DNA of 64,000 nt from an uncultured Candidatus Saccharibacteria bacterium (GTDB lineage: Bacteria > Patescibacteriota > Minisyncoccia > Phycocordibacterales > UBA9973). This document shows positions 13,969-29,931 of the stretch, one piece after another. A program made the translations under genes and the position numbers. The notes beneath the pieces are model-generated. The model saw only the letters and a list, made by a program, of their open reading frames with translations. It ran no database searches and was not told the origin of the DNA. Location: assembly GCA_964631935.1 (NCBI GenBank), contig CAZWAV010000004.1:9179-73178 (forward strand). Reading direction: 5' to 3'. Position 1 is the stretch's first letter. Every line of letters begins with the position of its first letter.

Positions 13969-14427
13969 ATGAATCAAGACCAAATCAAAAAAATCATAGA
14001 AGACATATTTACACATACAAACTGTACTATATCAAAATGTGAATTTTCTGATGACCATGGAATGCTCTGGTGTATGATTGATACCCCTGATTCTCGTTTT
14101 ATGATTGGCCGTGACGGTGAGACATTGCGATCTCTTAATCATATTGTCCGAAAGATGGTTGAAAAAAATTCTTCCGAAGAAGAAGTTTCTAAAATATTTA
14201 TTGATGTAAATGGTTACCAAAAGAAACGTTTTGATAACCTAAAAACTATTGCTCATATGATGGCTGAACGCGCTCGTTACTTTAAGAGCAATATTGAAAT
14301 TGATCCAATGCCAGCTTTTGAGCGTCGGATTGTTCATATGTTCTTGGAGGGAGCTCCTGATATAAAGACAGAATCTGAAGGGTACGGACCTAATCGTCGG
14401 GTTGTTATAAAATACTTAGTTAGCTAG
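13969..14427 (+). CDS. khpB: Jag/KhpB RNA-binding protein (KH + R3H)
   Basis: R3H region IEIDPMPAFERRIVHMFLEG...GPNRRVVIK, last gene of the rpmH-...-jag cluster. Its 3' end overlaps the convergent gene by 12 nt. Confidence 0.8.
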   Translation: MNQDQIKKIIEDIFTHTNCTISKCEFSDDHGMLWCMIDTPDSRFMIGRDGETLRSLNHIVRKMVEKNSSEEEVSKIFIDVNGYQKKRFDNLKTIAHMMAERARYFKSNIEIDPMPAFERRIVHMFLEGAPDIKTESEGYGPNRRVVIKYLVS

Positions 14428-15774
14428 ATCAAGGCTCCACAGTGTGGAGTCTTTCTTGTTGATGAAGAATAGTTGTGTCTCTGTTTTGTTTAAGAATAAA
14501 TGAGTTGCATCAACAGGACTCTCCCCTATTGAGTCCGCTAATGTACTAATTTGTCCTGTTAAAATATTTATTTTTACAAAATTATCATTGAATGATACCA
14601 ATCCTTGATACCATGAATCTGGGTATTCTCCGTTCGGGATATCTCTAGGGATCGCACAATACACTATAGTGTTGTTTGTGCTCCAAACACATTTTTCAGG
14701 TAGACTATATAAATTTAACTCTTTTACTGCATGTTTTTTAACATCAAGTATTCCGAGTTTTGGATTTCCTGTAACTGTTGAACTATATATAACCGATGCC
14801 CCATCTGTACTTGCTAGTGTTGTAAGCCCAGGTACCCCACCGAATATCTTAGTCAAAACCCCATTAGCGATGTTTAAGCTGAATAAGTCACCTTCAACCG
14901 ACGATGAAGCTTTTGTAGTTAGATATACATTTTGACTTGTCGGCCATTGTGATAGCCACTCAGATAGAGATGAACTAAACACTTGCGTTTTCTTTGTATC
15001 CTTAAATGATCTAGTTGTACCTATAACTCCACTGAATGTTTTTGTTAAATAGAAGAACTTTGTTTTATCTGGAGAAATACTAACGTCTAGAATATCTGAA
15101 GGAAGGAATTCCCCGTTTGTGCTTCCAAGACTAGCCAAGAAGCTTGTTATTGTTTTTCCATCTATTGAAAGGTATCTATATAAGACACTTGAAGCAGTTC
15201 CATCAAAAAATGCTTCATATATGCTCGGTATTGTTGAATTAGAAACTGTACCTATGGTTTTTGTGTCTAAATACATTTCGTCGATATGACCAGTAACGCG
15301 CTCAACATATCTTATAGCTGGCACTATTTCAAATTTAGGAGCTGGTGGCTTTTGAGGAGTGGTTTTTCCTTTTGTTGCTGGTGTTGTTTGAGTTGGAGTA
15401 ACAGCTTGGCCTGGATTTTCTCCACCTGGTAGTGCTATTAGAGTTTCAGGTAATGGTCTTGTGTCTTCAAAAAATGTAGCCCCTGAAACAGCAAAATTAG
15501 TTATTTGATGAAATTTATTTACTTGTGGGGTGCTTGGTGTATTATTATCTTGCGTAATTGGTGTGCCTGTATCTCCTGTACTATTATTTGTATTTCCACC
15601 TGTATTACTGTCTTGTTGTGTAGTCCCCCCACCTAAGAATGGTTGGTATCCAGAGTTTGTTCCAGAGTTTGTAGTTGGTGTGCTTGTCTTTGTGTTATAA
15701 AAATATAAACCAAGCATGATTGCTCCGACGAGAATGAATACAGTTATAAAAATTATTTTTGTTTTTCTTGGCAT
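14416..15774 (-). CDS. Membrane-anchored surface protein: N-terminal TM, T/N/G/Q-rich disordered linker, C-terminal globular (beta-rich?) domain
   Basis: TM IIFITVFILVGAIMLGLYFY; a low-complexity segment of about 100 aa (TSTPTTNSGTNSGYQPFLGGGTTQQDSNTGGNTNNSTGDTG...); last gene of the long minus-strand array. Confidence 0.6.
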   Translation of the reverse strand: MPRKTKIIFITVFILVGAIMLGLYFYNTKTSTPTTNSGTNSGYQPFLGGGTTQQDSNTGGNTNNSTGDTGTPITQDNNTPSTPQVNKFHQITNFAVSGATFFEDTRPLPETLIALPGGENPGQAVTPTQTTPATKGKTTPQKPPAPKFEIVPAIRYVERVTGHIDEMYLDTKTIGTVSNSTIPSIYEAFFDGTASSVLYRYLSIDGKTITSFLASLGSTNGEFLPSDILDVSISPDKTKFFYLTKTFSGVIGTTRSFKDTKKTQVFSSSLSEWLSQWPTSQNVYLTTKASSSVEGDLFSLNIANGVLTKIFGGVPGLTTLASTDGASVIYSSTVTGNPKLGILDVKKHAVKELNLYSLPEKCVWSTNNTIVYCAIPRDIPNGEYPDSWYQGLVSFNDNFVKINILTGQISTLADSIGESPVDATHLFLNKTETQLFFINKKDSTLWSLDLAN

Positions 15775-15787
15775 GAATTTATTTAAT

Positions 15788-17380
15788 CTAACCGTTTATT
15801 TTAGTGGAATTATTATTTATACCAGTTAGATTAACTTTAAAGTATTGCGCAGCTGCAAAAGCATTATCATAAGCATTCAATATTATACCACTAGCTTTCT
15901 TGTATTTATCAAATACAGCTCTACTTAACTGGAATAATCCTGAGTAACCATATGAATTAACGGTTGTTACTGATGCTTGGCTTGTACAACCACCAGCTGA
16001 CTCTATTCTGCAAACTGCTCGGAGTTCAGTAATGCCCACTCCTGTTTCAGTTGATACTTTATTTAATTCAGTATCTATAAATGATGGTATTTGAGGGCTT
16101 GTTTTCTTTTTTGCTGCTTCCATTTTTGTCGCCCAGTACTTCAAGAAGTTATTTGGTGTTAGTACGCTAGTCCCAATTGTATTTTGTGCACTGGTTGGGT
16201 TGAAATTTGTCTGCATATTTCTGTTAATGTTTGCTTTTGTGAAAGGATTATTTGTTGGCACACTGGTATAACCTTTTTTTGCTGACCATAGTATTGCTGA
16301 AGCACCAGCCACTCCTTGTTGGTGACCCAAGTATCCTATAAATGCTGAATCGCCATAACTAGAAGGAGTAATAGTTATATTTGAAGTATCAAAGCTATCG
16401 ATATTACTCATAAAATCTGGATCATCAGCACGATCACGTACTACTATGTCTGCGTCTACCTGATCAACAGTTACCCCATTCTGTCCTGTCAGAGCTGGAT
16501 TTATGGTGTTTAATATGGCAAAGGCACCAAGAGCAATAAATAACCCAAGAATGGCTGCCATAATTTTCCCTTTTGCCTCTGTCTTACCAAAAACTGATTC
16601 TTCTCCCATGTATTGAATACCGCCAATAACGATCATTATCACAGCAAGTGCTGCACATATTCCTATACCCATCTTAAATATTATATTTAGATAATCACCA
16701 AGACCTGTAGATGTTTTAACTTCAGTCAATGTACCTATTGGAGCAAGAAGTTTATATGTCTGATCTATTACAGGAGTTTGAGTTGTAGGGTCAACATTTA
16801 CTACAGGATTATCGTCATTACCATCTGGTGTTAAACTTAAAAATACTGCATTATCTAAACATAATCCATCACACTCGTAATAGATGTGACCATCAGTTTC
16901 CCCTGCTGAATTGTACAACACGTTATCACCCTGTCTTATATAGAAAAACAAGTCACAGTCATATCCAATAGCCCCAGTCAGTCCCGCTTCACACTCCTCC
17001 TCACCTAGCCTAATTCTCATTGTAAAATTGTCAGTAGGTATGTCCAGTGGCCTCCTTAGTAAATGAGAATCTTGTAATGCATCGTCACAATTAATTCCAC
17101 AAGTATCTGCCTCGAAAACCGTAAGAGTTATATCTGACTTATCTGTACAATTTTTTGTTTTGACTTTTATATTGGCAGCTGTCTTACCGTCCCTATAGAA
17201 TGTATCTTTGTTTTGCTCTCCTGCTGGGACCCATATTGCCGAGAGAACAACGCAATCATCTGCTGAAACAGTGCTTTTATTTATCTGCGCACTACCTTTA
17301 CCATTAATAACAATACCAAAAGGAACAAAAAGGTTTGTAATTATAAGTATAGAGATTATGTATAGAGATAGTTTCTTCAT
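15788..17380 (-). CDS. Secreted/membrane protein with Cys-rich N-terminal domain, a pilin-like double hydrophobic hairpin, and a C-terminal lytic transglycosylase (SLT, VirB1/CwlT-like) domain
   Basis: Signal peptide MKKLSLYIISILIITNLFVPFG. Two adjacent TM helices (GIGICAALAVIMIVIGGIQYM ... IMAAILGLFIALGAFAILNTI). SLT-like catalytic region VCRIESAGG...GYSGLFQLS (ES...GLxQ pattern). Confidence 0.55.
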   Translation of the reverse strand: MKKLSLYIISILIITNLFVPFGIVINGKGSAQINKSTVSADDCVVLSAIWVPAGEQNKDTFYRDGKTAANIKVKTKNCTDKSDITLTVFEADTCGINCDDALQDSHLLRRPLDIPTDNFTMRIRLGEEECEAGLTGAIGYDCDLFFYIRQGDNVLYNSAGETDGHIYYECDGLCLDNAVFLSLTPDGNDDNPVVNVDPTTQTPVIDQTYKLLAPIGTLTEVKTSTGLGDYLNIIFKMGIGICAALAVIMIVIGGIQYMGEESVFGKTEAKGKIMAAILGLFIALGAFAILNTINPALTGQNGVTVDQVDADIVVRDRADDPDFMSNIDSFDTSNITITPSSYGDSAFIGYLGHQQGVAGASAILWSAKKGYTSVPTNNPFTKANINRNMQTNFNPTSAQNTIGTSVLTPNNFLKYWATKMEAAKKKTSPQIPSFIDTELNKVSTETGVGITELRAVCRIESAGGCTSQASVTTVNSYGYSGLFQLSRAVFDKYKKASGIILNAYDNAFAAAQYFKVNLTGINNNSTKING

Positions 17381-17383: not shown

Positions 17384-18379
17384 TTATAGATTGAGTTTTA
17401 AATCACCACTCACCTTCTGATACAGAGTACTAAGATTTTGTAATACTAAATTTATGGTTGCATATCCACCTCGAGCTGTCGGATGTACAGTCAATTGTGT
17501 TTTCTTGGACGGAGTTTGAATATCCTTTCCATTTATCTTCCAACTATACGTAAAATCATTTTCATTGCCCTTTAATGCTAAGAAGTAAGGCTCAGCAACA
17601 ATTGTTACCTCCTCCTCTGTAATAGATGCCTGATTATCTAGTGCTTGATTATAAAGAGTACCTTCTGTTGGGGATTTTTTATAGAATAAAATCTTTGGTT
17701 TTACTATTGGAACCTCTATTGTATTTGTCGCGCTGTATTGACCATCTATAGATTGAGCATTTACTGTTACCGTCTCATTGTTGTTTAACTCACTATTTTG
17801 GAATACATAAGAATCTTTATTGTACCCAGAAGCGCTCTGAACAGTATTATTCTCAGCTTTCCAAGTATACGTTATATTACCTTTTCCTTGTTTTATGATA
17901 TTTGTATTTGGAACAGCAACAACTTTTATTAAACCTTCAGCTGAAGGAAATGATTTACCGCGATAAAAAGGAGGAGTATATGAGTCTACCCCTTCCCATA
18001 TAAGTTCAACTTCTGATGGATTAATAGCAATTCTTTTGTTTATTTTATCTAAAGAGCCTGGAATATTTATTACTACGTCTAGTATTGTAATATTGTTTGG
18101 TCCTAGAGTCTTAAATGAGTAGCTTGTTTTGCCGTAACCTGAAAGGACAATATTTGATCCATTTTGCCACTGTATCATTGCTTTGTTTAGGTCTGTGGCA
18201 TAACTTGTTAGCGTTACAGTCACGTCCTGATATGGTTGTGGATTATCTGGAATTGTAGTTACAGAGATATCGCTTTCTTGAGGAGTAATTTCATTTTCAG
18301 CCATGGAGACCCTGGCTACATAAAAGATACCAAGCATAATGATCAAGCTTAACAATATTTTTACTCGAGAATTAGTCAC
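17384..18379 (-). CDS. Secreted protein with repeated Ig-like/beta-sandwich-looking segments (T4SS-associated surface protein candidate)
   Basis: Signal peptide MTNSRVKILLSLIIMLGIFYVARVSMA. Repetitive composition (about 90-aa periodicity by eye). Tightly coupled between the VirB4 and hydrolase genes. Confidence 0.6.
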   Translation of the reverse strand: MTNSRVKILLSLIIMLGIFYVARVSMAENEITPQESDISVTTIPDNPQPYQDVTVTLTSYATDLNKAMIQWQNGSNIVLSGYGKTSYSFKTLGPNNITILDVVINIPGSLDKINKRIAINPSEVELIWEGVDSYTPPFYRGKSFPSAEGLIKVVAVPNTNIIKQGKGNITYTWKAENNTVQSASGYNKDSYVFQNSELNNNETVTVNAQSIDGQYSATNTIEVPIVKPKILFYKKSPTEGTLYNQALDNQASITEEEVTIVAEPYFLALKGNENDFTYSWKINGKDIQTPSKKTQLTVHPTARGGYATINLVLQNLSTLYQKVSGDLKLNL

Positions 18380-18439: not shown

Positions 18440-20278
18440 TTAGCTAGAAGCTTCTGAGCTAGCCAAATCATCCTTAGCTTTCTTTATCGCAAGTATTTGT
18501 GATGGGTCGGAGGTTATGATCTGGTCCTCAGTGTATGAAGCTATTGTCTTTACTGCCACGTGTTTGAGGCCAGCGAAGAATATACCCTCTCCAACGTTTG
18601 CTTCTAGGAGTAGATATTTCTCTTCATCTGTTAGGTTAAATGTTTTCTGTAATACATCAACAGTTGAAGGCGACTGCTTTAATAGAAGTTGGATAGAAGA
18701 GTTTGTCACAATAGGCACTCCGTATGGGCTTTTCATAAAATCGCCGACATCTTGAGTAATAGTGGCAAGCCCTAGATAGTATTTACGTCCACGTTTAGCT
18801 ATTGAATATAGGAAAGAAGCAGTATCTTCTGATTTCATCATCCACCACGCCTCATCAACGACAAGTAGGCGTTTGCGAATGTTCTTTCTTATCGCATTCC
18901 ATATATAGTGAGTGACTATGTACATTGCCACAGGTTTCAACTCATCTTCCATGTCACGTACTGAAAAGACTACAAATTTACGATTTATATCCACATTTGA
19001 TGGCTGGTTTAGGAATGATGACCATGATCCGTGTGTGAATTTTGCTAAGCGCTGTATAAGTGAACCACTCCCCTCCATACCAGCAAGAACCATTTCAAAG
19101 TCTGTTAGAAGTGGTGGTTCAATATTTGCAAAGTTTGATTCTGAAGTAATATCTTTAAGCGCATAAGTCTCAGTAATAGCTCGGTCAATAATAGAATCTT
19201 CTTCTGGGGTTAAACCTCCAAGCATAATGCGGAATAAGCCAACTAAGTTTATGGTGTTAGCACGCAAGACATCGGCAGGAGTTTCGTCAGAACTTGGTAT
19301 TGGTAGATCAAATGGATTAATATGGTGGTCAGAAGAAAGAGCAATATTAAAATATCTTCCACCAACTGCTTCTGATAAATATTCATATTCACGTTCAGGG
19401 TCAATCACAATAACCTCTGTGTCGAACATTAGAGTACGAATAATTTCAAGCTTGGTGGCATATGATTTACCAGCTCCTGAAGTAGCAAATGTAATTGAGT
19501 TATAGTTTGGAAGAGAGAATCTGTCAAATATTATAAGGCTAGAATTGTGACGATTAACACCATATAGTATTCCTTTATTAGACGTTAAGTCAAAAGATAC
19601 GAATGGAAATAGACTAGAAAGTGGCTCAGTATTGAGCTTCTGGTGAATGCCCAAGAGGTCAGTGCCTAAAGGAATAACACTCTTGAATGCTTCGTCTTGT
19701 TGGAATAATGCTGGTTTTAGATATATGAGCTTTGATTCAAGTAGAGATTTTATTTCACTTTCAATTTTAAATAAATCATTCTCACTATCAGCATATACTG
19801 TAATATAAAGACCAACATCAAACATTTTCTCTTGAGCCTGCATAAGATTATCACGTAAGCCCTCTAGGTCCTGATAAGCTGTATCGAGCATCGGATCACG
19901 GACAAGACCTTTTGATTCTCTTATTGAAATCTGACTTTGAACTTCAGCAACTTTCTTTTGAAAAGAACGAAGCACATCTCCTGTATCTATAGGGTGTATA
20001 AAAATAGATACATCAAAAACTTTATCAAGATTGATAATTGGTGAGAACCAGTTGTCTGTCAGATACCTAGGGTAGGATATAACGAAAAATGTACGAGCAA
20101 TTTTATCTCCCAGGTTTAAACCTTTTGGGGTTATTTGTAGAGCCGAAGGAGCGATAATGTCTTGGAGTTCAAGAGTCGCTGCTTTATAAATCTCAGATGG
20201 GATAACAGGCATAACCATACTCTTTGGTTTATTGTTTGTATTACTATCCCCTCCAAACATTTTTGAAAATATAGACAT
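18440..20278 (-). CDS. VirB4/TraE/ConE-family type IV secretion ATPase: middle and C-terminal ATPase parts
   Basis: Walker A TSGAGKSYATK. Walker B LLVVDEAWWMM (the DEAW motif characteristic of the VirB4/TraC family). No N-terminal TM helices, which argues against VirD4. N-terminal IAPSALQITPKGLNLGDKIARTFFVISYPRYL resembles Gram-positive VirB4 homologues (recalled, not searched). Confidence 0.75.
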   Translation of the reverse strand: MSIFSKMFGGDSNTNNKPKSMVMPVIPSEIYKAATLELQDIIAPSALQITPKGLNLGDKIARTFFVISYPRYLTDNWFSPIINLDKVFDVSIFIHPIDTGDVLRSFQKKVAEVQSQISIRESKGLVRDPMLDTAYQDLEGLRDNLMQAQEKMFDVGLYITVYADSENDLFKIESEIKSLLESKLIYLKPALFQQDEAFKSVIPLGTDLLGIHQKLNTEPLSSLFPFVSFDLTSNKGILYGVNRHNSSLIIFDRFSLPNYNSITFATSGAGKSYATKLEIIRTLMFDTEVIVIDPEREYEYLSEAVGGRYFNIALSSDHHINPFDLPIPSSDETPADVLRANTINLVGLFRIMLGGLTPEEDSIIDRAITETYALKDITSESNFANIEPPLLTDFEMVLAGMEGSGSLIQRLAKFTHGSWSSFLNQPSNVDINRKFVVFSVRDMEDELKPVAMYIVTHYIWNAIRKNIRKRLLVVDEAWWMMKSEDTASFLYSIAKRGRKYYLGLATITQDVGDFMKSPYGVPIVTNSSIQLLLKQSPSTVDVLQKTFNLTDEEKYLLLEANVGEGIFFAGLKHVAVKTIASYTEDQIITSDPSQILAIKKAKDDLASSEASS

Positions 20279-20279: not shown

Positions 20280-20933
20280 TTATTGTAGTTTTATCCCCTG
20301 ACTAATATCCCCTGGGTTGAATGTCTTATAGAAAAGCTCGACAACTTCTTCTGTATTTAATTGAGAACTACGTACACCTAAACCTCCTAGTCCTGAAATT
20401 ATAACCCCGACACGCTGATCGAGCTGACTGCGCTTCTCCTCAAAGTCGGCTAAGTCTATAGCTTTTTTAGTATCTTCTATCTGCTTTTTAGGGCTTGTAG
20501 ACCCCATGATTTTATCAAGCATTCCGTCGCTTGATTTTAATATTGTCTGACTATATGGTACGACAATAAAAAATGTCTTTGTCATAATGTTCACTTCGTC
20601 GGTGAATGAACGGATAAAATCTATATATTCTTTAGTCTGTATTTTCAATAGCTTTTCCGTCTGCTCTTTTTCTCGAGCTTCAAGCATCATCAGATATGGT
20701 CTAATGTCTAATCTACGTGATTGGACTACTATTTGAGTTGAAAAATCAAGACCGTTTAGAAAAGATTGGAATTGATTAATGATAGCTGTTTGCTCTTCAG
20801 AAGATTTAAGAGAAAGATTTATTGATGATGCTATAAGCACAGCACGAAGGCCACCATCTTTTAGAATAATGACACCATTGCGAACTTCTTTAATTGGTAC
20901 GAACTCTTGTGCTGCACGAGCATTAATAGCCAT
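20280..20933 (-). CDS. VirB4 N-terminal domain (CagE/TrbE/VirB-type) as a separate ORF; possibly a split or frameshifted VirB4
   Basis: FVPIKEVRNGVIILKDGGLRAVLIASSINLSLKSSEEQTAIINQFQSFLNGLD matches by eye the VirB4 N-terminal consensus (ddgvlltkdGslgavi...d.esl..eel..l...l). Its TAA stop is 1 nt from the downstream ATG (TAATATG). Length 217 + 612 = 829 aa, the size of full-length VirB4/ConE. Confidence 0.6.
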   Translation of the reverse strand: MAINARAAQEFVPIKEVRNGVIILKDGGLRAVLIASSINLSLKSSEEQTAIINQFQSFLNGLDFSTQIVVQSRRLDIRPYLMMLEAREKEQTEKLLKIQTKEYIDFIRSFTDEVNIMTKTFFIVVPYSQTILKSSDGMLDKIMGSTSPKKQIEDTKKAIDLADFEEKRSQLDQRVGVIISGLGGLGVRSSQLNTEEVVELFYKTFNPGDISQGIKLQ

Positions 20934-20940: not shown

Positions 20941-21360
20941 TTATATCATATTAGTATCATTTTCTTTTTCTTGGACATCTAAACTCCAAGCTAAATCTTT
21001 TAGTGAACTTGAAGACGTCATAGGGACGATTGAAGTTGTTTGTGGAGTTACTTCTTCTTTGTTCTTATCGCTTGGTTTTACAAGGCGTTGCTTCCAAATG
21101 TATAGTTTACTTGAAATACTATAATTTATAGCTGCCTGGAGATAGTAAATGAAAGGTTTATTGTTGATTTTATAGAAAGTTAAAAGACCAGTGAGTCCAG
21201 CTACGGGAATTATTATGAAAATACTTATCCAAAATGGAAGTAATCTGTAAGCAATGAATATCATTCCAGCACCACCGACTAAATATACGAATTGGCGAAA
21301 GGTAAAAGGACCAAAGAGTTTATCTTCTATGTCGATAAATTGTGGAACCTTAAATTGCAT
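20941..21360 (-). CDS. VirB3/PrgI-like small membrane protein (TM hairpin) immediately upstream of VirB4
   Basis: 139 aa with a central hydrophobic hairpin LVGGAGMIFIAYRLLPFWISIFIIIPVAGLTGLLTFY. The position mirrors VirB3-VirB4 and PrgI-PrgJ arrangements. Motif evidence is weak. Confidence 0.45.
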   Translation of the reverse strand: MQFKVPQFIDIEDKLFGPFTFRQFVYLVGGAGMIFIAYRLLPFWISIFIIIPVAGLTGLLTFYKINNKPFIYYLQAAINYSISSKLYIWKQRLVKPSDKNKEEVTPQTTSIVPMTSSSSLKDLAWSLDVQEKENDTNMI

Positions 21361-21379: not shown

Positions 21380-22459
21380 CTATTCTATTGCCTCATGATA
21401 AGGATCATGAGCTTTTGGAGTAGGAGCAGAATCTGCTTTACTTTCTGGGGAACCTCCCTGCATCTTTGGGATAGAATGATCACTAACTACAGTTTTACTA
21501 ACTGTAGATTGATTTAATTTATTCGAAAGCATGTCTATACCAGACTCCATAAGCAAAATATTATCCATAGGAGACATTTTCTTTTCTTTTTCTGTTACAG
21601 GTGGCACGGGAGATTCTTTTTTATCCATCATTTCAATTCCTGCACTCTTGTATATGTTTGATTCAGCCCCAGAAGCCTTTGTTTCTATTTTAACTTCTTC
21701 TTTTGGTTGAGCGATAATACTCTCTTGCATAGGGCTCTTTGCGTATGGAGGTAGAGGCACTTCATCGTCTATATCATTTGCAATTTGACTACCACTACCC
21801 CAATGATTTTTTAATATTTCTCTTATATTTTTTAAAATATCTTCGTTGACTTCGTTCGCAATCTCACTGATCTCTTCTTTTGGTTTAGCTATACTTGATT
21901 GTAATTCTGACTCGTACTTATCTGGGTGAATAATACTAAGCATAACCTTTGTTGTCGCTTCTTCTAGTGCACCCATCTCATTTATAGATAGCTTGTGCTT
22001 TGCTGCTATTGCATATAATGCTTTCTGGTAACCAGATTCACTGATAGCAAATTGTACTTCCTTTGGTAATTTTAGGAATCTCTCGTCTAATTTTTGAACA
22101 CCCCCGTATTTCTCCTCTGCGATATCTATAGCATTTTTTTGGAATGTATTAGTTAGTTGAGGTCGGATAGATCCTAATACTGTGGTATTTATTTCAGTAA
22201 TCATCTTCAGTAAATTTTCTGTAGGCATCGATATCTCATTTTGTAGATTTTTTTCATATTCTTCCTCGTCTACAATACCAAGCATTACCAATGTTGTTTC
22301 CGTACCAAGGGTCTGTATCTGTTCTTCGTTCAAGCTATACTTTTTACTTATATCTCCCAATATATCCATCCACTTCATAGATGAAAATACAGTCTGCACT
22401 TCTGATGGAAGTTTAGAATAGTAGAGCGCTATTTGTTGTTGTAGTTGTGTTTGATCCAT
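21380..22459 (-). CDS. Cytoplasmic hypothetical protein with an internal tandem duplication of an approximately 55-aa unit
   Basis: YSKLPSEVQTVFSS...LGTETTLVMLGIV is repeated as FLKLPKEVQFAISES...LEEATTKVMLSII. No TM helices. Acidic S/P/K-rich C-terminus. Confidence 0.6.
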   Translation of the reverse strand: MDQTQLQQQIALYYSKLPSEVQTVFSSMKWMDILGDISKKYSLNEEQIQTLGTETTLVMLGIVDEEEYEKNLQNEISMPTENLLKMITEINTTVLGSIRPQLTNTFQKNAIDIAEEKYGGVQKLDERFLKLPKEVQFAISESGYQKALYAIAAKHKLSINEMGALEEATTKVMLSIIHPDKYESELQSSIAKPKEEISEIANEVNEDILKNIREILKNHWGSGSQIANDIDDEVPLPPYAKSPMQESIIAQPKEEVKIETKASGAESNIYKSAGIEMMDKKESPVPPVTEKEKKMSPMDNILLMESGIDMLSNKLNQSTVSKTVVSDHSIPKMQGGSPESKADSAPTPKAHDPYHEAIE

Positions 22460-22469: not shown

Positions 22470-25166
22470 TTAATGATGTCCTCCCCCACCGTGATCATCA
22501 CCACCTTTTCCATGACTCTCTTCAACCTTTACTGTAACCTTTGCGCTTTTCATTGCTTCGGTTATTGTATGGCCTATATCTTTCAAGAAATCATTTTGTC
22601 CCGATCCATGGTTTACTCCACTACCCTTAAGCCCTGTACGTACTCCCATAGCAATTCCAGCAATTAACCCAGCACTAGCTTTTGTAAATAGACCCTCTCT
22701 TTTATCTGTCTTTGCTTGAGAAAGGTTTCTTGCGTCATAACTACCTTTATTGGATTGTGCAAAAACTCTATCTGCTCCACTAACCTGCTGTTTTGACTTG
22801 TCTTGTAATTCATTAAATTTCCTGCTCGATTCTTTATCTGTTGAAGTTTTCAATATTGCGTTAAAGTCAACATTCAATTGGTCCTCAATCTTTTTCTTGC
22901 CTGCATCTGTCAAAGCACCACTACCATCTACGTCTCCGCTTGCACGTGCGTTTGGATGACTTGCGACTGCCATAGAGACACGGTTTCTGTTTGCTGCTTT
23001 ATATCCACTCTCCCCCCCTGCCACTTTCTGGCCATTTGTATCAATCAAATCTGCCTTACCTTGCTTAATATCAGTTTCAATCTCAGTTCTCTTCTCTTTC
23101 TTGAATGTTTCTTCTAGAGCGTGGACATCTGCTCCTGAAAGATTACTATCATTTACCCCCTTCAAATGATTCTTTTCTTTTAGTGAATCCCAATCTGATC
23201 GAGCTCTGTCAACGTCATGAATCTTTGATTGTTTTGCATTTAAATTACCCCCTAAACGAGTAAATACATTTGCCTTAACACCATTGTTTGCTTTGTACAT
23301 TTCCCATGTAGGCTTTATTCCCCCACTTCCTTTTTGTTTCTTTTCTTTTGCTCTCCAATCCTCTAGGTTTTTATTAAATTGTACTTTGTGCCCACCATAC
23401 TCTTTTGCCCCATCAGTTCTAGAAAGTGCGCCCATTCCTCTACCAACAATATTTCTTCCAGCAAATGCTGCTCCTAGTGCTGCTCCTCCAAGGGCAAGTC
23501 CTCCTACAGCTGCTATACCACCTGTAATAGATTGGCCAAGTTTTCCTGACATATCTTTGGCAATACTTTTTGCTTTCATTAATAGGACCATTATGAATAT
23601 AAAAGGTAAAATAATTCCTAAAATAAATTTAATTCCAGTCATTTGGGATACATCACCTAGTCCAAATCCTACTTGTATAAATTTAAGAATTAAATAGAGG
23701 AAGAATATAAAAATAGGCGCAAGAAATGCCAGACTTATAGTTTCTGGCCACCATTTTTTCCAGCCAACCATACCCATGTTTTGCATTGATGGCACAGTGT
23801 AACTAAAGAATGCTAGTGGAGCGAATATCATAGAAAACCATAATCCTATGGATCTAGCTACGAATATTAATCCAACTGATAAGAATACTATAAAGCCTAC
23901 TATGTTTATAGCACTAGCTAGTAGTGTGATAAGTATAAATCCGCCAACTCCGAGCCCTGAAGCTGTATTTTCAGTTGAAGCACTTCCTCCTGTAGATTTA
24001 TCTATGACACTTACTTGGTTCGCATTCTTAATAAGCATCTGAGGGTTAATCTTACTAACTATTGATTCTGAAATTGGCACAGTTCCATCTGCGCCAGCTT
24101 GGGCTACACCATTTTTTGTAACTTTAATCGCATCCGAAGTATAAAATACACGCGCAAGTATGTTTGAAGCATCAATAATAATCTGCGAGGCAAAGAGACT
24201 GAAATTTATAAGGAGTCCTATAATGACTACATTTATAATCATCTCTTTAGTTTTAAATCCGTGTATTGAGAGGATAGTAGCAAATGCTATGTAAAGCAAA
24301 ACGAATATAAAGAAAATATTACAGAAATCACGAATCAACCCCCAACCTTGAACTACAAAGTCTGATCTATATGATGTGTCTTGAATTGAGTAATTAAAAG
24401 TGGTGTCGAAAAACATTCCAGCAAGTCCGAAGATATAAGATGAAGGGACAAATACTACATAGTAAGCTAGCTGAGCAATACAACCAAGTATTGTTCCCCC
24501 ACCTGTAAGCCATGAATCAGCGATTCCACAGCTTGGCATGTATGAATCTGAATTTGTATCCTTTGCGATTTGCTGAGAAGTAGTATTTACTACCCCAGTA
24601 GCAGTTGTTTTTATCGGATATTCTAGAGGGCCTATTATCCCTTCTTCTTTATTTCCGTTATAGGCAAAGTATGTAAGATAGTAAGTTGTGCTTGCTGTGA
24701 GCCCGGTAACTGATATTGGCCATGATTCAGTGACAAAGTCAGCATTTGTATCTGAAGTCGTTCCGTCGCTGCCCAGGTCTAGTTTTCCGTGAGCAAGGAC
24801 TTGGGATCCTGTTGCTGGTTTTATATCACCTTCTGGTGGAGGGTTCGTATTATAATCATTTAAATATGCATTCGTGCTTGTGATTGAAGCTTTAATATTA
24901 TTGTAGTCAGGCATAGTAGCGCCCGGCTTATCTGAGACAAGATATATAAGTTTATGATGAGCAGTTTTTGCTCTTGTAATATTGAAAGCGAATTTAATTG
25001 AATTCTCTGTCGTGTTTTCTTGCGTTATGCCTATCGTCATTGATCCGGCTTCCGCAATAGATTTTTTGATTGCTGGTTTATTTACTGCGTTTAGTCCAAG
25101 AGTAAAAGGCGCGAATATATTCACCAGAATGAGAATTATGAGAATTGAAGGGAAGATTTTTTTCAC
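22470..25166 (-). CDS. Polytopic membrane protein, VirB6/TrbL/ConG-like candidate: signal peptide, FN3-like ectodomain, at least 6 TM helices, long Gly/Lys-rich C-terminal tail
   Basis: Signal peptide MKKIFPSILIILILVNIFAPF. FN3-like TASTTYYLTYFAYNG. Multiple long hydrophobic segments across residues about 230-560. The tail is rich in G/K/A/N and ends GGDDHGGGGHH. Confidence 0.55.
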   Translation of the reverse strand: MKKIFPSILIILILVNIFAPFTLGLNAVNKPAIKKSIAEAGSMTIGITQENTTENSIKFAFNITRAKTAHHKLIYLVSDKPGATMPDYNNIKASITSTNAYLNDYNTNPPPEGDIKPATGSQVLAHGKLDLGSDGTTSDTNADFVTESWPISVTGLTASTTYYLTYFAYNGNKEEGIIGPLEYPIKTTATGVVNTTSQQIAKDTNSDSYMPSCGIADSWLTGGGTILGCIAQLAYYVVFVPSSYIFGLAGMFFDTTFNYSIQDTSYRSDFVVQGWGLIRDFCNIFFIFVLLYIAFATILSIHGFKTKEMIINVVIIGLLINFSLFASQIIIDASNILARVFYTSDAIKVTKNGVAQAGADGTVPISESIVSKINPQMLIKNANQVSVIDKSTGGSASTENTASGLGVGGFILITLLASAINIVGFIVFLSVGLIFVARSIGLWFSMIFAPLAFFSYTVPSMQNMGMVGWKKWWPETISLAFLAPIFIFFLYLILKFIQVGFGLGDVSQMTGIKFILGIILPFIFIMVLLMKAKSIAKDMSGKLGQSITGGIAAVGGLALGGAALGAAFAGRNIVGRGMGALSRTDGAKEYGGHKVQFNKNLEDWRAKEKKQKGSGGIKPTWEMYKANNGVKANVFTRLGGNLNAKQSKIHDVDRARSDWDSLKEKNHLKGVNDSNLSGADVHALEETFKKEKRTEIETDIKQGKADLIDTNGQKVAGGESGYKAANRNRVSMAVASHPNARASGDVDGSGALTDAGKKKIEDQLNVDFNAILKTSTDKESSRKFNELQDKSKQQVSGADRVFAQSNKGSYDARNLSQAKTDKREGLFTKASAGLIAGIAMGVRTGLKGSGVNHGSGQNDFLKDIGHTITEAMKSAKVTVKVEESHGKGGDDHGGGGHH

Positions 25167-25233: not shown

Positions 25234-26184
25234 TTACCAGATATTAAACATCAATTCATATAGACCGTAACCTGAAATGTATTCTGGTGATCCGCTGCCA
25301 GCAGTAGGATTCTGATAGTACGGATTATCTTTAATTTGTTTAGGTCCAGTGTAAGCAGGGTTGGCTTTCTGAGCTACGCAATCTTGGGTTAGTCTTGTTG
25401 CTTGAGTGATCAACTCTTGGTTTGTTTGGTTGTCGTAATCAAGTAAAGTTACATCATCGTCTATACGAAGAGTCGGTGATAATAAGTAATATTGACGAAG
25501 AAGTACAGCTAGCTGAGCCTTCTCTTCTTCTGTAAACTCCAGAGGATCATCTGGACACATGCCAGGGGTTGCTATAGCCACTGCGTCTTTTTTACGGCTC
25601 TCATTGTTCATATTTTTATCATAGGAAAGACTATTATTAGCATCAAAATCTGTGTGACAGCCTGGATCGTGAGTGTCCACTAGATTATCCGCGTCATTAT
25701 CTATGCCATCTGAACATTGCTCTAAGTTATTTGTTGAAGTAGTTGATGTGTCTACGTTACATGCTATGAGGTTACCATTCTGGTCATGACAGTCTGTATT
25801 GCTTGGTGACGGAATTGGATTAAATGGAGGAACTATTGAACCAGGGCCAATACCAACTACTGGAGCCCCTGTATTTGATCCTGTTGTACCGTTTGAATTG
25901 TTGCCAGTCCCTGTATTTGATCCTGTTGTACCGCCTACGTTGTCAGTATTTGAATTGTTACCAGTGTTTGTATTGTCTGTATTTGTTGTATCGACATTAT
26001 TTATACTAGTTGCATCTTTTTGTTTTGACGAGCCAAGTAATGGTGCAAAAATTTTACTGATAGTTGAATTTTTTGTACCAAATACACCACCATTTTTAAA
26101 TAGGAAATAACCAACTATCAAAAGTAGAAGTACTACGATAAATGTGATGATGAATGCTTTACTTTTTTTAGGGTTATTATCCAT
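25234..26184 (-). CDS. Membrane-anchored protein: N-terminal TM, T/N/G-rich repetitive linker, Cys-containing C-terminal domain
   Basis: TM AFIITFIVVLLLLIVGYFLF. Linker TNTDNTNTGNNSNTDNVGGTTGSNTGTGNNSNGTTGSNTG is encoded by a tandem DNA repeat. Six Cys in the C-terminal half. Architecture parallels the 14416-15774 protein. Confidence 0.6.
   Translation of the reverse strand: MDNNPKKSKAFIITFIVVLLLLIVGYFLFKNGGVFGTKNSTISKIFAPLLGSSKQKDATSINNVDTTNTDNTNTGNNSNTDNVGGTTGSNTGTGNNSNGTTGSNTGAPVVGIGPGSIVPPFNPIPSPSNTDCHDQNGNLIACNVDTSTTSTNNLEQCSDGIDNDADNLVDTHDPGCHTDFDANNSLSYDKNMNNESRKKDAVAIATPGMCPDDPLEFTEEEKAQLAVLLRQYYLLSPTLRIDDDVTLLDYDNQTNQELITQATRLTQDCVAQKANPAYTGPKQIKDNPYYQNPTAGSGSPEYISGYGLYELMFNIW
25860..26000. 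repeat. Imperfect tandem repeat (about 45-bp unit) inside a coding region, encoding a G/T/N/S-rich linker
   Basis: cctgtatttgatcctgttgtaccg...tttgaattgttgccagt recurs twice with variants. It shows up in the ORF track as repeated LLPVPVFDPVVP in a + strand shadow ORF. Confidence 0.5.
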
Positions 26185-26188: not shown

Positions 26189-28639
26189 TTATTGTTTTAT
26201 TATATCATTACCATTTGCTTGGATTTCTATCCATGTAACTTTTTCATTATCAAGACAGATTTGTGGCATTGGGGTTAAACCATCTGCAATTCTTCTTGTT
26301 TTACGACGGTTTTGGGCAGCTATAACAATGGTATTTACCTTGTCTTTAATAAAACCAAGTCTGTATATATTTCCACTCGCTTGAGCATAATTATCATTAG
26401 CGCTAATAATTGCCTTTGATATATCTTCTGCATCAGTAACTATGTTTTTGGTTAGATCAAGACCAGCTTGAGCCATAGGTAAGAATTTTGGATTTGGATT
26501 TCCTTCTGGGGTGAACTCAGTCAACATTGGGCTATTTATGCCGAATATTTCTTTTGACTTTATAACATACTCGTTGTAATTTTTTGTCGCTAAATCATTC
26601 CACTTTGTAATCTGTGCTTCAACATAAGCAGGATCAACAGCCCAGTGATCTGAAGAGAAAGTATAAGTCATATGAACAGTGTTCTTCGCGATCCAATAGA
26701 ATTCTTCATTTACTATTCTATCCCAAAGATTTCTAGCGTCATCAAAAACTTTTTTGTAGTCTGTAGGGTCTGGAAGAGATATCACATTATATGAGTGATC
26801 CAATCCTCCATTGAGCAATCCTCCTATTGCTTGGATACCATCACAACCAATGAAAGGACATTTGTCGTAGACATCCCTAATGTACTCAACTGAAACCCCG
26901 CTCAAATAATCAAAATAAGCATTCTTGGCACTATCTGAATTACTCTCCCAGTTGTAGTTTGGGCCTGGTATACAATAATCGAGTTCAGCAAGTTTCGGTA
27001 TGACCTTTGGAAGGATTGTTGTTGCTTTCTTTATAGAATTTAGATAATCTTTTTGTATTTGATATACGCCTCTTGTTTCTATTATATGATTTGGCACACC
27101 GACTTTCCACGTTGTCCCATCAAAGAAAGCTTTTTGTCCGGTAGTCCAATGGTGAGCACCTGCAAAAAGTTTTGTATCTCCAGCTACAGATACTGTGTAG
27201 TATTGATTTTTTGTTCCAGTACCAGGTGTAAGTTCTGGTGTATTACTATTTGCATCCCAAGCGCCGCCATTTATAGGTAATACATATTTATTACCTAAGT
27301 CTCTGGTCAAATCAAAAGGTGCGCCGTTTGTATTTGCGCTAACTTGACTACCAATAGCAGTACCAGAAGCAATGCTGTTACCTATAGCATCAACTATATT
27401 ATTTGAACCGAATCCACCAGATACTGGGTTGGTAAAATTATTATCTTTTGATCCCAGGCCTGATAATCCTTGGTTTTCAAAAGTGTTTATTAAAATGCTG
27501 AATAACGAATTTAATCCATCATTCAATGTTTTAGATAGCTCGATTTGGCGCTCTGGAGAATTTATATATGTGTCTATTTTAGTTTTTATAACACTTCCTG
27601 GGGTAACAGTCTCAAATCGTTTACATTTTGGTGATCCATCAGCATTTTGTGAATGACTTGGATCGTCGTCAGGGTTTGGCTTCTCATACTCTACACATTT
27701 CTTCTGGTCGAATACCCCACCGTTTCTAGATAATTCTGCTTGAGCATTGGCAACAGCTGAGTTCTTCTTTTTGTTTAGTTGTGCTGTAGCATCTACAGTA
27801 AATCCTAGAGGATTATTTTCTGAGTGTTGAGTGAAAGCAAGCCAACCATTCCATCCACCTTGGGTGAAATCTCTAGCAAAACTATCTGGAGTTGCGCCTG
27901 GAGTTAGATAGTTTGTTAGATCTTGTTTCATTGAGCCTAAGGTGTCCTTACCTGCCTTATATGCATTTATTTGTCCTATGGCATAATCACGACCGTATGG
28001 GTATGCGGTTGCATTTGCTGGATCTTTGAAAAGATCATTTTCTTTTTTAAGGATTGCTGTTGTTAGACTATCCATATAAGAATCAACATCACGTACATAC
28101 ATAGGGTCACCATTGAATCCCGTTGTAATCCAGTTCATAGTGTATTTGGTCATAGCAGTCAGCTGGTTTTTTACAAGGGTCGTAGCTATACCATTAAGAC
28201 AATTTTCTGTAAAAGCTTTTTTGTCTGCACTTGCTTGCTCTTTTTGCCCAGTTTCCAGTAAAAGATCTCCCAATGCAGCATCAACACCAGATACAGAATC
28301 TTGTTTTTTTGAATTTTGTTCTTGTTTCTGTTTGGTCTTTTCAGCTTTACTAGTAAGTTTTTTCTGAATAAATTCTGTCGTTACTTTTGAAACCTTATCT
28401 ACAATACCAGTACAGCCGACAAGAGACGTAAGAAGCCTACTGTTTATAATACCCTTTAGAGATACTTTATAAGGGCTATCAGAACCAAATTTATTTGGAT
28501 TGTCATAGTTAAGTCCTGTATTCCCCGCTAGCGCACTAGAGGGTATAAAAGCTTGCAGTAAGAATAAAGCAATGATTAGAGTAGATAGTGTTTTTTTAGT
28601 AATAGATTTCTTCATGAAAGTATATAAAGAGTATATCAT
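26189..28639 (-). CDS. Large secreted hypothetical protein (816 aa), Cys-containing; adhesin/tip-protein candidate of the T4SS-like module
   Basis: Signal peptide MKKSITKKTLSTLIIALFLLQAFIPSSALA. No TM elsewhere and no recognisable enzymatic motif. Confidence 0.65.
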   Translation of the reverse strand: MIYSLYTFMKKSITKKTLSTLIIALFLLQAFIPSSALAGNTGLNYDNPNKFGSDSPYKVSLKGIINSRLLTSLVGCTGIVDKVSKVTTEFIQKKLTSKAEKTKQKQEQNSKKQDSVSGVDAALGDLLLETGQKEQASADKKAFTENCLNGIATTLVKNQLTAMTKYTMNWITTGFNGDPMYVRDVDSYMDSLTTAILKKENDLFKDPANATAYPYGRDYAIGQINAYKAGKDTLGSMKQDLTNYLTPGATPDSFARDFTQGGWNGWLAFTQHSENNPLGFTVDATAQLNKKKNSAVANAQAELSRNGGVFDQKKCVEYEKPNPDDDPSHSQNADGSPKCKRFETVTPGSVIKTKIDTYINSPERQIELSKTLNDGLNSLFSILINTFENQGLSGLGSKDNNFTNPVSGGFGSNNIVDAIGNSIASGTAIGSQVSANTNGAPFDLTRDLGNKYVLPINGGAWDANSNTPELTPGTGTKNQYYTVSVAGDTKLFAGAHHWTTGQKAFFDGTTWKVGVPNHIIETRGVYQIQKDYLNSIKKATTILPKVIPKLAELDYCIPGPNYNWESNSDSAKNAYFDYLSGVSVEYIRDVYDKCPFIGCDGIQAIGGLLNGGLDHSYNVISLPDPTDYKKVFDDARNLWDRIVNEEFYWIAKNTVHMTYTFSSDHWAVDPAYVEAQITKWNDLATKNYNEYVIKSKEIFGINSPMLTEFTPEGNPNPKFLPMAQAGLDLTKNIVTDAEDISKAIISANDNYAQASGNIYRLGFIKDKVNTIVIAAQNRRKTRRIADGLTPMPQICLDNEKVTWIEIQANGNDIIKQ

Positions 28640-28642
28640 TTA

Positions 28643-29515
28643 TTATAGATTCTTTGAAAGCGTGTTAACATCGGACACTAATGCATCTGTATACTTTTTG
28701 TAATTAATGACAGCTTTCATTCCATTTAAGGGAACAGTCAGCATATCACCCATACCCTCTATTGATTGGGCTACTTTTTCATAATCATTAGCAAGGGCAA
28801 GATGGGTGTCACTTAAAGTATTTGGAACTTGTATTTTTAAGAGCTCTTTACCAGCTGATCTATACGCTGAAGCGACCTTGTCGGCCTCTATAAATGCTTG
28901 AGGATCATTGTTTGTAAGCCCTACACTAATAAAAGTAAGTTCTTTGCCAATATCTTTATCCTTGTATTTATTGAATAAATTAGCTAATTCGGTAGTGTAT
29001 GCACTTGTACTCGCTGGGTTTGTTTTTACAGGTAAAATCATGCTTTTTGTGTAAAGATCTGGGATTGGGGTTGCTATGATTTTTTGACCTATAGTGTCGC
29101 TCACGGCTTTAATCGAAACCTCATCTAGATTGCCGGATTCTTGGAGTGACATAATAACAGAGAAAAATTCTCGTGAAAGTGTCTCATTTTCTGACAGAGG
29201 CTGATTTGTATCGTTATTTAAGGTATTCTCTTTTGCCAACGTCTCTCTTTGGGCTAAGATGAATTCTTTATTTGAAGAGCCATCCCCTTTTGGATTAAGG
29301 CCCCACAAGGATTCTTCCCAGTCAGGGATACCATTGTCATTACTATCTTTTTGAATCACATCAGATTTTATAATAAGGGAGGTCTGGCCTTTGTTCTGTA
29401 GCTTATTTCTAATAAATATCGTTATTTTATATACACCAAAAGCAATAATAATTAAAACCAGAGCTGTTATCGCCCGAGCTATGAATTGTTTACTTGGAAG
29501 GTACTTTGGATCCAT
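28643..29515 (-). CDS. Bitopic membrane protein (N-terminal TM plus an extracytoplasmic domain of about 250 aa); VirB8-position analogue, unproven
   Basis: TM ITALVLIIIAFGVYKITIFI. No motif-level assignment. Confidence 0.55.
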   Translation of the reverse strand: MDPKYLPSKQFIARAITALVLIIIAFGVYKITIFIRNKLQNKGQTSLIIKSDVIQKDSNDNGIPDWEESLWGLNPKGDGSSNKEFILAQRETLAKENTLNNDTNQPLSENETLSREFFSVIMSLQESGNLDEVSIKAVSDTIGQKIIATPIPDLYTKSMILPVKTNPASTSAYTTELANLFNKYKDKDIGKELTFISVGLTNNDPQAFIEADKVASAYRSAGKELLKIQVPNTLSDTHLALANDYEKVAQSIEGMGDMLTVPLNGMKAVINYKKYTDALVSDVNTLSKNL

Positions 29516-29517
29516 AT

Positions 29518-29931
29518 TTACTTAGAAGTACCATACATTGTTATAGGGGTAAGAGTTACGCTTGTTGATGATGGTGGAGTACCTCGGAATTTACATATAA
29601 CAGTAGTTTTTGACTGACTATATAGACCTTTTATTTGCTGGCCAGCTCGAGGTGTTGTATTTGTTCTTGATTTTACAGAAGTAGGTATTAAAAATGTTGT
29701 TGGAGACCCTTTAGTAACTGGCTTTATGGTAATAGAAGTACCAGGAACATTACAACTATAGTTCGATTCTTCTAAAGATTGTATTTCTGTCGCTTTTACA
29801 TTTATTATCTTGCCACCAAAAGCCTTCCCGACTGTACCTGCGTGGGCTATATTGAAGGCAACAATAACAACAAGAATAGCTAATATTGAAGAGGCTGTTA
29901 ATAAAGCATGTTTCATAGCCTCATTATACAT
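29518..29931 (-). CDS. Small secreted protein (signal peptide with AHA cleavage-like site)
   Basis: MKHALLTASSILAILVVIVAFNIAHA|GTVG. First gene after rsmA in the array. Confidence 0.55.
   Translation of the reverse strand: MYNEAMKHALLTASSILAILVVIVAFNIAHAGTVGKAFGGKIINVKATEIQSLEESNYSCNVPGTSITIKPVTKGSPTTFLIPTSVKSRTNTTPRAGQQIKGLYSQSKTTVICKFRGTPPSSTSVTLTPITMYGTSK

Follow-up and report, generated by a model that had tools for sequence, protein, structure and literature searches.

A chromosomal, Patescibacteria-type type IV secretion module with a predicted pilin-enzyme fusion in a Paceibacteria genome

RESULTS

A described secretion system in a Paceibacteria genome

We analyzed a putative type IV secretion system (T4SS) module at positions 14416-29931 of a 64-kb stretch of contig CAZWAV010000004.1 (hereafter the window, i.e., the whole stretch at its full length). 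Our data make it very probable that this module is a chromosomally fixed, vertically inherited T4SS characteristic of Patescibacteria, carried by a Paceibacteria (Nomurabacteria-like) genome and likely acting at host contact. A previous sequence-only reading had considered it the best candidate for an undescribed system in the window, a claim that did not survive, as the system has been described in two reports (PMC12102498, published in 2025, and PMC10633639, published in 2023); the module is the published Patescibacteria T4SS and matches the 2025 survey point for point (PMC12102498). Almost all ultra-small Patescibacteria have such a cluster beside the replication origin, and its descriptions date from 2020-2025. 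The same reading had suggested that the organism is an ultra-small episymbiont, which agrees with its being a Paceibacteria metagenome-assembled genome (MAG).

According to the ORF calls, the interval contains twelve co-directional open reading frames (ORFs) on the minus strand, separated by intergenic gaps of 1-67 nt, and they start directly 3' of rsmA and pcrA/uvrD on the same strand. The ORFs that carry the assignment are as follows.

22470-25166, minus strand: extended VirB6-like polytopic protein, 898 aa (by fold and gene context)
20941-21360, minus strand: PrgI/VirB3-like small membrane protein, 139 aa (Pfam PF12666)
20280-20933, minus strand: TrsD-like protein, 217 aa, equivalent of the VirB4 N-terminal domain (NCBIfam)
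18440-20278, minus strand: VirB4 ATPase, C-terminal motor part, 612 aa (NCBIfam, Pfam, PDB, PrgJ alignment, and motifs)
15788-17380, minus strand: pilin-enzyme fusion, 530 aa, m530 (PF18895, SLT homologues, and AlphaFold model)

The suggestion that the module is of Gram-positive type, i.e., derived from the mating-pair-formation class MPF-FATA, is borne out by two profile matches above their cutoffs (NF045971 and PF12666, detailed below) and by gene order. More specifically, the order in the window (VirB6-like, X, PrgI, TrsD, VirB4, X, and wall enzyme, where X is another ORF) is colinear with prgH-prgI-prgJ-prgK of pCF10.

A split VirB4 motor and its PrgI-like neighbor

The VirB4 ATPase matched the NCBIfam model NF045971 ('VirB4-like conjugal transfer ATPase, CD1110 family') with 370.3 bits (cutoff, 325), Pfam P-loop_TraG (PF19044) with an E value of 1e-24, and VirB4 in the PDB (4ag5) with an E value of 4e-38; an alignment with pCF10 PrgJ covers 539 aa at 25% identity (E = 2e-43). 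The Walker A motif TSGAGKS (aa 266-272, nt 19463-19483) and the Walker B motif DEAW (aa 475-478, nt 18845-18856) are located where they had been claimed, and the identification as a VirB4-family ATPase is thus confirmed by profile, structure database, and PrgJ matches.

The alignment with PrgJ begins only at PrgJ residue 244; therefore, the product of 18440-20278 lacks the VirB4 N-terminal domain. An equivalent of this domain is encoded by the TrsD-like gene, which, as seen in the junction sequence, ends 1 nt before the start codon of the ATPase gene. Three NCBIfam models cover aa 8-145 of the TrsD-like protein, i.e., VirB4_plasma (model positions 104-237, E = 5e-10), TrsD (E = 3.3e-8), and CD1110 (model positions 2-139, E = 5e-6), all of them under their full-length cutoffs, as expected of a fragment, and PF26593 (TraC-like) is on record for this protein. 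For comparison, a VirB4 genome scan yielded 593 relatives, and the best 80 of these (species genomes) were used to compare loci; a separate TrsD-like gene (~212-222 aa) is present in 79 of the 80. VirB4 is encoded here as two genes, one for a TrsD-like N-domain and one for the ATPase.

The small membrane protein encoded upstream matched Pfam PF12666 (PrgI) with 41.7 bits (cutoff, 27; E = 1.7e-10), and its gene was found in 75 of the 80 loci; in the window, just the TrsD-like gene separates it from the ATPase gene. The sequence-only reading was correct in calling this protein VirB3/PrgI-like and incorrect in placing its gene directly upstream of the ATPase gene, as 20280-20933 lies between them. 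BLASTP searches of the TrsD-like protein against PrgJ and of the PrgI-like protein against pCF10 PrgI gave no significant match, and hidden Markov models (HMMs) alone detect these relationships.

An extended VirB6-like polytopic protein

The 898-aa protein was modeled with AlphaFold from a 50-sequence alignment (predicted local distance difference test [pLDDT], 73). A signal or anchor segment is followed by a beta-sandwich of FN3-like type (aa 43-204, nt 24555-25040). Helices make up the membrane core (aa 226-560, nt 23487-24491), and the C-terminal domain (aa 570-850) is long, hydrophilic, and likewise helical. A Foldseek search with this model returned TrwI as the top hit among membrane proteins (probability, 0.98; TM score, 0.47-0.50), at a weak E value of 0.17-0.23. 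At the sequence level, the database entry of identical sequence carries a 'weak' TrbL_3 match, the family profile retrieved coiled-coil noise only from the PDB, and an hhalign comparison of the family with pCF10 PrgH was not significant (E = 0.34). We accept the protein as a putative 'extended VirB6-like' subunit on the basis of modeled fold and gene context, without demonstrated sequence homology; the earlier proposal of a VirB6/ConG-like polytopic protein holds to the same extent, and its implied sequence similarity was not significant.

A predicted pilin fused to an exchangeable cell wall enzyme

The 530-aa protein begins with a signal peptide and a Cys-rich beta-sandwich (aa ~28-205, nt 16766-17299). 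The two helices of a VirB2-like T4SS_pilin hairpin follow (aa 226-292, nt 16505-16705), and the C-terminus (aa ~320-530, nt 15791-16423) consists of a putative lytic transglycosylase domain of divergent SLT-like type. In the AlphaFold model (pLDDT, 83), the hairpin forms two long hydrophobic helices (aa 228-293), and the C-terminal domain is all-helical with a pLDDT of >90. Known VirB2 topology implies that both domains flanking the hairpin should be extracellular.

The hairpin matched Pfam T4SS_pilin (PF18895) with an E value of 3.9e-4 (20.9 bits, below the gathering threshold of 26.6) and the NCBIfam model Mbov_0395 ('pilin-like conjugal transfer protein') at aa 225-293 with an E value of 1.5e-4, below the cutoff of 40. 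PF18895 was also matched in 27 of 33 homologues of the fusion. In 68 of the 80 loci, the gene that follows the m331 orthologue in synteny encodes a pilin-domain protein (at about 12,850-14,500 in loci L007-L086); among 69 syntenic orthologues, 57 matched PF18895 (best E = 9e-10), and six matched TrbC/VirB2. A pilin-hairpin HMM run across the window revealed no pilin ORF besides the fusion. A VirB2-like pilin, which sets the Patescibacteria system apart, is present in the form of this hairpin.

The C-terminal domain contains the pattern ES...GLFQ...AYDN (ES at nt 15989-16009 and GLFQ at nt 15923-15940). It had no Pfam SLT match and no sequence match in the PDB. The domain is common to 22 of the 120 homologues listed, and 7 of those 22 match Pfam SLT (best E = 1.4e-5); the family profile showed weak similarity to the phiKZ gp144 lytic transglycosylase (E = 0.025). 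A Foldseek search with the m530 model returned nothing at E < 1e-3, and MltF ranked 33rd (probability, 0.96 over 93 columns; weak E = 0.56). The structural searches that had been proposed thus gave TrwI as the top membrane match for the 898-aa protein and no confident match for m530. A divergent lytic transglycosylase is a plausible identity for the C-terminus, in line with the VirB1/CwlT-like enzyme proposed before, although it is part of the pilin fusion and not the product of a separate gene. Collectively, the module observed in the sequence-only reading is confirmed, with the VirB6-like and VirB1-like assignments being putative, and the interpretation given there is supported in part; the split of VirB4 and the pilin fusion had been overlooked.

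The domains that flank the hairpin vary between loci. Among the 69 syntenic pilin proteins, Pfam recognized NlpC/P60 (n = 12), VanY (n = 8), YkuD (n = 5), M15_4 (n = 3), and Amidase_5 (n = 2) domains, and SLT-type domains (SLT, SLT_2, and SLT_4) in up to five. In the ten closest relatives, whose VirB4 is 82-93% identical, the C-terminus of the fusion was assigned to VanY (n = 4), canonical SLT (n = 1), or YkuD (n = 1) or was left unassigned (n = 4), and the N-terminus contained a TIG domain in two. Flanking domains are therefore exchanged even between genomes as similar as these. In addition, a precomputed enzyme domain was found in 85 of the best 120 homologue clusters, and a GDSL lipase domain additionally in two clusters. 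The hairpin itself is 70-83% identical in the closest homologue clusters and 35-75% identical in the syntenic orthologues.

The fusion is not mentioned in the searchable literature, and we regard a pilin fused to a swappable cell wall enzyme as a modest new detail. It could be a membrane-anchored equivalent of VirB1, for which any wall-cutting activity would suffice. A bolder idea, possible though on balance unlikely, is that the pilin or channel tip of the T4SS presents a polymorphic 'drilling' enzyme directed at the host wall, and that the type of enzyme tracks the chemistry of the host envelope. If so, the fusion would be a host range determinant and not a housekeeping VirB1.

The module is fixed beside the replication origin

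The 80 loci all come from Patescibacteria MAGs labeled Paceibacteria, Nomurabacteria, or Parcubacteria. In 77 of them the genes are colinear, in the order pcrA, rsmA, m290, m816, VirB6-like, m359, prgI, trsD, virB4, m331, pilin fusion, m452, jag, yidC, rnpA, dnaA, and dnaN, an outcome that answers the call for a synteny comparison with related genomes. The adjacency of rsmA and pcrA to the module is kept in relatives wherever the locus flank reaches that far, and that of the origin-proximal block in ~50 of the 80 loci. VirB4 is 75-93% identical across the 80 species genomes (median, 79%) and DnaA has a median identity of 66%, VirB4 exceeding DnaA in 52 of the 52 loci that hold both, although VirB4 identity is inflated relative to its neighbors, as the loci were picked by VirB4 similarity. 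The surrounding genes are listed below.

30750-32678, minus strand: pcrA/uvrD, housekeeping neighbor outside the machine (Pfam UvrD-helicase, E = 1e-90)
29949-30746, minus strand: rsmA, housekeeping neighbor outside the machine (Pfam RrnaAD, E = 2e-58)
9695-14427, no strand assigned: housekeeping block bounding the module, with dnaN, dnaA, rpmH/rnpA, yidC, and jag (Pfam matches)
11002-12354: dnaA (Pfam)
9695-10792: dnaN (Pfam)

A gap of 17 nt separates rsmA from the first module gene (m137), and at its other end the array is convergent with the side that holds jag, yidC, rnpA, rpmH, dnaA, and dnaN. The spacer between dnaN and dnaA (10793-11001) contains a DnaA-box cluster at 10840-10996 (i.e., three near-consensus 9-mers, of which one is perfect and two have a single mismatch), and a further DnaA-box-like 9-mer is located upstream of dnaA at 12423-12431. 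Because of the dnaA and dnaN neighbors and the DnaA boxes in the spacer, we place the module beside the replication origin, and the positions are consistent with a predicted oriC within ~3 kb of the module. The short gaps of 1-67 nt suggest an operon structure. A scan of the module for promoters and terminators gave counts no higher than those in shuffled controls, and an Rfam search of the module matched no RNA element.

The composition of the module is like that of the rest of the chromosome, as had been stated before: its GC content is 0.366 (0.357 elsewhere), and its tetranucleotide distance is in the range of windows of equal size. P-loop proteins in the window are limited to PilB, RuvB, DnaA, VirB4, PcrA, and ComM, with no VirD4/TcpA-type coupling protein (T4CP) among them. 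No relaxase domain was detected in any scanned ORF of the window, and its only tyrosine recombinase is of Xer type (49853-50776), 20 kb from the module. The Pfam and NCBIfam scans therefore agree with the earlier statement that the window holds no coupling protein, relaxase, or integrase of an integrative and conjugative element (ICE). No relaxase, T4CP, or ICE integrase was found in the flanks of the contig beyond the window, either; beyond one window end, the Pfam matches were to housekeeping genes, and beyond the other, no match is on record for several genes. In addition, no direct (att-like) repeats flank the module.

These data bear on whether the module belongs to a functional or recently decayed ICE whose relaxase, coupling protein, and integrase lie beyond the window. 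Such an element would suit the placement of VirB4 in the NCBIfam family of pCF10 PrgJ and a gene order like that of prgH-prgK, and VirD4 homologues are found in most Patescibacteria genomes, far from virB4 (PMC12102498). Against it stand the same jag-rsmA position in 77 of 80 species genomes, the greater conservation of VirB4 than of DnaA, the housekeeping nature of the contig flanks, and the scarcity of relaxases, which a survey of 3,035 Patescibacteria genomes reported in just 103 (PMC12102498). Synteny, normal composition, the lack of repeats, and a sole recombinase that is of Xer type and 20 kb away largely refute this possibility, and we leave it hardly any chance; an ordinary ICE is unsupported within the window and its flanks, where the check for repeats and an adjacent relaxase was negative. 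Since synteny is kept in 77 of 80 species genomes and composition is normal, we consider the module a vertically inherited core trait that is apparently under strong constraint and not mobile. The view that it is a domesticated, non-conjugative T4SS is upheld by the same synteny, by the lack of a relaxase, T4CP, or integrase nearby, and by the published scarcity of relaxases.

Comparison with known systems

Of 3,035 Patescibacteria genomes, 2,417 have VirB4, which forms a clade inside MPF-FATA; its most abundant partner is TrsD, and PrgI, VirB6, and PF18895 pilins are also present (Quiñonero-Coronel et al. 2025, PMC12102498). In Paceibacteria, this T4SS is located beside dnaA, dnaN, rnpA, ksgA (rsmA), and rpmH (PMC12102498). 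In Southlakia epibionticum ML1, the cluster SEML1_0006-0019 is essential for epibiotic growth, with most of the genes from SEML1_0013 to SEML1_0006 scored essential, and contains no recognizable coupling protein or relaxase (Wang et al. 2023, PMC10633639). Its genes encode, in order, a VirB6-like protein, an NTF2-like protein, a large protein, PrgI, a 293-aa protein, a 612-aa VirB4, an M15 peptidase, and a lysozyme/peptidase, and six separate pilins then follow (PMC10633639 supplement).

The window module shares with these systems the split TrsD and 612-aa VirB4, PrgI, the putative extended VirB6-like protein, PF18895 pilin domains, predicted cell wall enzymes encoded shortly 3' of virB4, a colinear order, the lack of a relaxase or T4CP nearby, and an origin-adjacent position with dnaA, dnaN, rnpA, ksgA, and rpmH. 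It differs from the S. epibionticum cluster in having a single pilin domain fused to a wall enzyme in place of six free-standing pilins, in lacking separate M15 and lysozyme genes, and in having no recognized NTF2/VirB8-like gene; furthermore, m816, m290, m331, and m452 belong to unnamed families without a Pfam or NCBIfam domain.

With the MPF-FATA systems (i.e., pCF10 prgH-L, pGO1/pSK41 trsC-trsD-trsE, and ICEBs1 conB-conG-cwlT), the module has in common a VirB4 in the NCBIfam family of PrgJ, a PrgI member, the order VirB6, VirB3, VirB4, and hydrolase, and a monoderm architecture without VirB7, VirB9, and VirB10; a separate TrsD-like N-domain is likewise encoded in pGO1. In contrast to those systems, the module has no T4CP (PcfC), relaxase (PcfG), oriT, or adhesin, it includes a VirB2-like pilin, a component absent from Gram-positive systems, and it is chromosomally fixed and syntenic across species instead of mobile. 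None of the hhalign comparisons of module family profiles with pCF10 PrgH, PrgK, and PrgL was significant. There are also likenesses to the ICEs of Mycoplasma, which are mobile and have their own DDE recombinase: VirB4 scored 251.8 bits against the Mbov_0397 model (below the cutoff of 590), and the hairpin weakly matches Mbov_0395. These matches hint that MPF-FATA systems may themselves already have a pilin-like subunit, as opposed to one borrowed from diderm systems.

T4SS relatives that lack a relaxase and a T4CP can also import DNA, as Helicobacter pylori ComB and Sulfolobus Ced do with VirB4 plus a VirB6-like protein, and the module, with its VirB4-family ATPase and its polytopic VirB6/CedA-like protein, could be a DNA importer of this kind, supplying nucleotides or genes to an organism unable to make them. 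The lack of a T4CP and relaxase in the window would fit such a role, as would the competence-associated pilB, comM, and FtsK-gamma protein genes in the window and a weak match of VirB4 to the CedB model (E = 2.4e-7). This match amounts to just 29.8 bits (cutoff, 700), as opposed to 370 bits for the conjugative CD1110 family, with CedD at E = 0.017, and the outer membrane core that ComB has, VirB7, VirB9, and VirB10 (equivalents of ComB7, ComB9, and ComB10), is absent from the module. Moreover, competence was linked to type IV pili and not to the T4SS. In S. epibionticum, deletion of comEC abolishes competence and not viability, whereas the T4SS is essential (2025 review, PMC12857230); because comEC is dispensable for viability, the essential role of the T4SS in that organism is not ComEC-linked DNA uptake. 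The DNA uptake function that had been proposed for the module is weakened accordingly, and we consider it improbable. The same review speculates that the T4SS and a pilus form a conduit for exchange with, or uptake from, the host (PMC12857230).

Accessory proteins of the module

The remaining ORFs of the array encode the following proteins.

29518-29931, minus strand: m137, 137 aa, N-terminal anchor or signal, lineage-specific first gene after rsmA (hydropathy)
28643-29515, minus strand: m290, 290 aa, N-terminally anchored, conserved accessory protein (hydropathy and motif)
26189-28639, minus strand: m816, 816 aa, N-terminally anchored or secreted, 8 Cys, conserved orphan family (hydropathy)
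25234-26184, minus strand: m316, 316 aa, anchored, with a linker that is rich in N/T/G and of low complexity and with an acidic double-disulfide repeat
21380-22459, minus strand: m359, 359 aa, acidic, without hydrophobic segment, predicted cytoplasmic
17384-18379, minus strand: m331, 331 aa, N-terminally anchored, probably with tandem Ig-like domains, conserved accessory protein
14416-15774, minus strand: m452, last gene of the array, 452 aa, N-terminally anchored, containing a low-complexity linker and probably a beta-propeller

Hydropathy analysis showed a single N-terminal hydrophobic segment in each of m137, m290, m816, m316, m331, and m452, and these six account for the five or more signal peptide-bearing or membrane-anchored proteins counted previously. 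Conservation differs among them. The m331 gene is present in 76 of the 80 loci, and members of its family have weak Ig_3, PKD_3, and aBig_2 matches. The m452 gene occurs in 65 of the 80 loci; its family profile matched TolB with an E value of 0.023, and 2 of 27 members matched PD40. Orthologues of m290, which carries the conserved motif D-x-D-G-I-x-D-W-E-E, were found in 36 loci (flank length limits this number), and no PDB match was obtained for it. Neither the m816 protein nor its family had a Pfam, NCBIfam, or PDB match; its 224 homologues are unnamed proteins without Pfam domains and come from Patescibacteria wherever the source is named. By comparison, m316 is poorly conserved and lineage-specific (9 of 80 loci; lengths of 317-1051 aa), matches NCBIfam NF033662 below cutoff (E = 2.9e-8), and has a 42-nt tandem duplication within its linker (25864-25933). 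The m137 protein had no Pfam or NCBIfam match and an orthologue in just 1 of 80 loci. The cytoplasmic candidate m359 is weakly conserved (47 loci; median identity, 32%); a relationship of m359 to DUF5663 was considered and rejected. As for a VirB8 candidate, hhalign comparisons of m331 and m290 with pCF10 PrgL were not significant.

Other observations in the window and in S. epibionticum

In S. epibionticum, rsmA and a UvrD-family helicase gene are also neighbors (SEML1_0666-0668), with a gene for a phage tail-type lysozyme between them and far from the T4SS (PMC10633639 supplement). Since this pairing is found far from the T4SS in Saccharibacteria, it is older than the adjacency to the T4SS. 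Upstream of DUF5663-pcrA-rsmA in the window, on the same strand, three large ORFs (1062, 417, and 691 aa; 33048-39578, minus strand) had no Pfam or NCBIfam match, and the 1062-aa product has 2-3 internal hydrophobic segments. A secreted LysM and Peptidase_M23 protein is encoded at 39919-41136, at a distance of 10 kb from the module; in Patescibacteria, some VirB1 homologues are found together with M23 and LysM domains (PMC12102498). At 635-2841, a gene for a PilB-type ATPase of type II secretion systems and type IV pili (T2SSE, E = 3e-116) is followed immediately by one for a 144-aa membrane protein for which an FtsK-gamma domain is on record; it is unusual for a DNA recognition domain to be paired with a pilus ATPase. 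The ~960 nt that come next (2842-3806) contain no convincing ORF (just a 90-aa ORF at 3029-3301) and no Rfam match at the gathering threshold.

DISCUSSION

The component identities, the synteny, and the absence of mobility genes nearby describe a T4SS fixed in the chromosome, and essentiality has been demonstrated only for the colinear Saccharibacteria system (PMC10633639); how the parts assemble, what is transported, and in which direction are inferred. In the mechanism that we propose, the split VirB4 motor (i.e., the TrsD-like N-domain and the ATPase) would dock on the PrgI/VirB3-like and extended VirB6-like proteins to form a translocon in the cytoplasmic membrane. The pilin hairpin would carry its lytic transglycosylase outside the cell, where it may open the cell wall or form a short surface conduit, and five or six membrane-anchored extracellular proteins may build the part that spans the wall or contacts the host. 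Such a machine would be non-conjugative and would most likely work at host cell contact, either exporting proteins or serving as a conduit that exchanges or takes up host molecules. A role at host contact would explain both the retention of the module next to the origin and a conservation stronger than that of DnaA.

Several points weigh against this interpretation. The genome may encode a T4CP elsewhere, VirD4 homologues being common far from virB4 (PMC12102498). A Pfam hmmscan of the 898-aa protein and 50 homologues gave no TrbL/VirB6 match, and the VirB6 and SLT assignments rest on structure- and family-level evidence, with no significant sequence matches of the window proteins themselves. 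The selection of loci by VirB4 similarity, noted above, belongs here as well. Furthermore, searches of the module proteins against Pfam, NCBIfam, and the PDB identified no VirB8-like (NTF2) subunit, although m290, m331, or m452 may have a divergent VirB8 fold; VirB8 is also rare in Patescibacteria according to the published survey (PMC12102498).

The machine could, alternatively, do nothing more than assemble a surface organelle, with VirB4, VirB3, and VirB6 extracting and polymerizing the pilin fusion, which would present enzymes and adhesive domains for attachment and wall remodeling, and with no macromolecule passing through a channel. In canonical systems, VirB4 drives pilin dislocation and pilus biogenesis, and a role confined to this would suit a module whose sole pilin bears large extracellular domains, which encodes many anchored proteins with Ig-like, FN3-like, or propeller-like domains, and which has no T4CP. 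A pilin with terminal domains of ~200 aa and ~230 aa may not polymerize, however, and the VirB6-like putative channel subunit has been retained and conserved. We hold such an organelle-only function to be rather unlikely, although sequence data do not separate it from the translocon at host contact that we favor.

The window does not reveal a new system. What it provides is a clean Paceibacteria example, syntenic throughout and with a short list of parts. Conserved envelope machines are few in this radiation, which forms a large share of bacterial diversity, and the Patescibacteria T4SS is among them; in the one genetically tractable relative, it is essential for growth on the host. The domain swapping of the pilin fusion offers a testable handle, i.e., enzyme class versus host envelope, that bears on whether this machine acts at the host cell wall.

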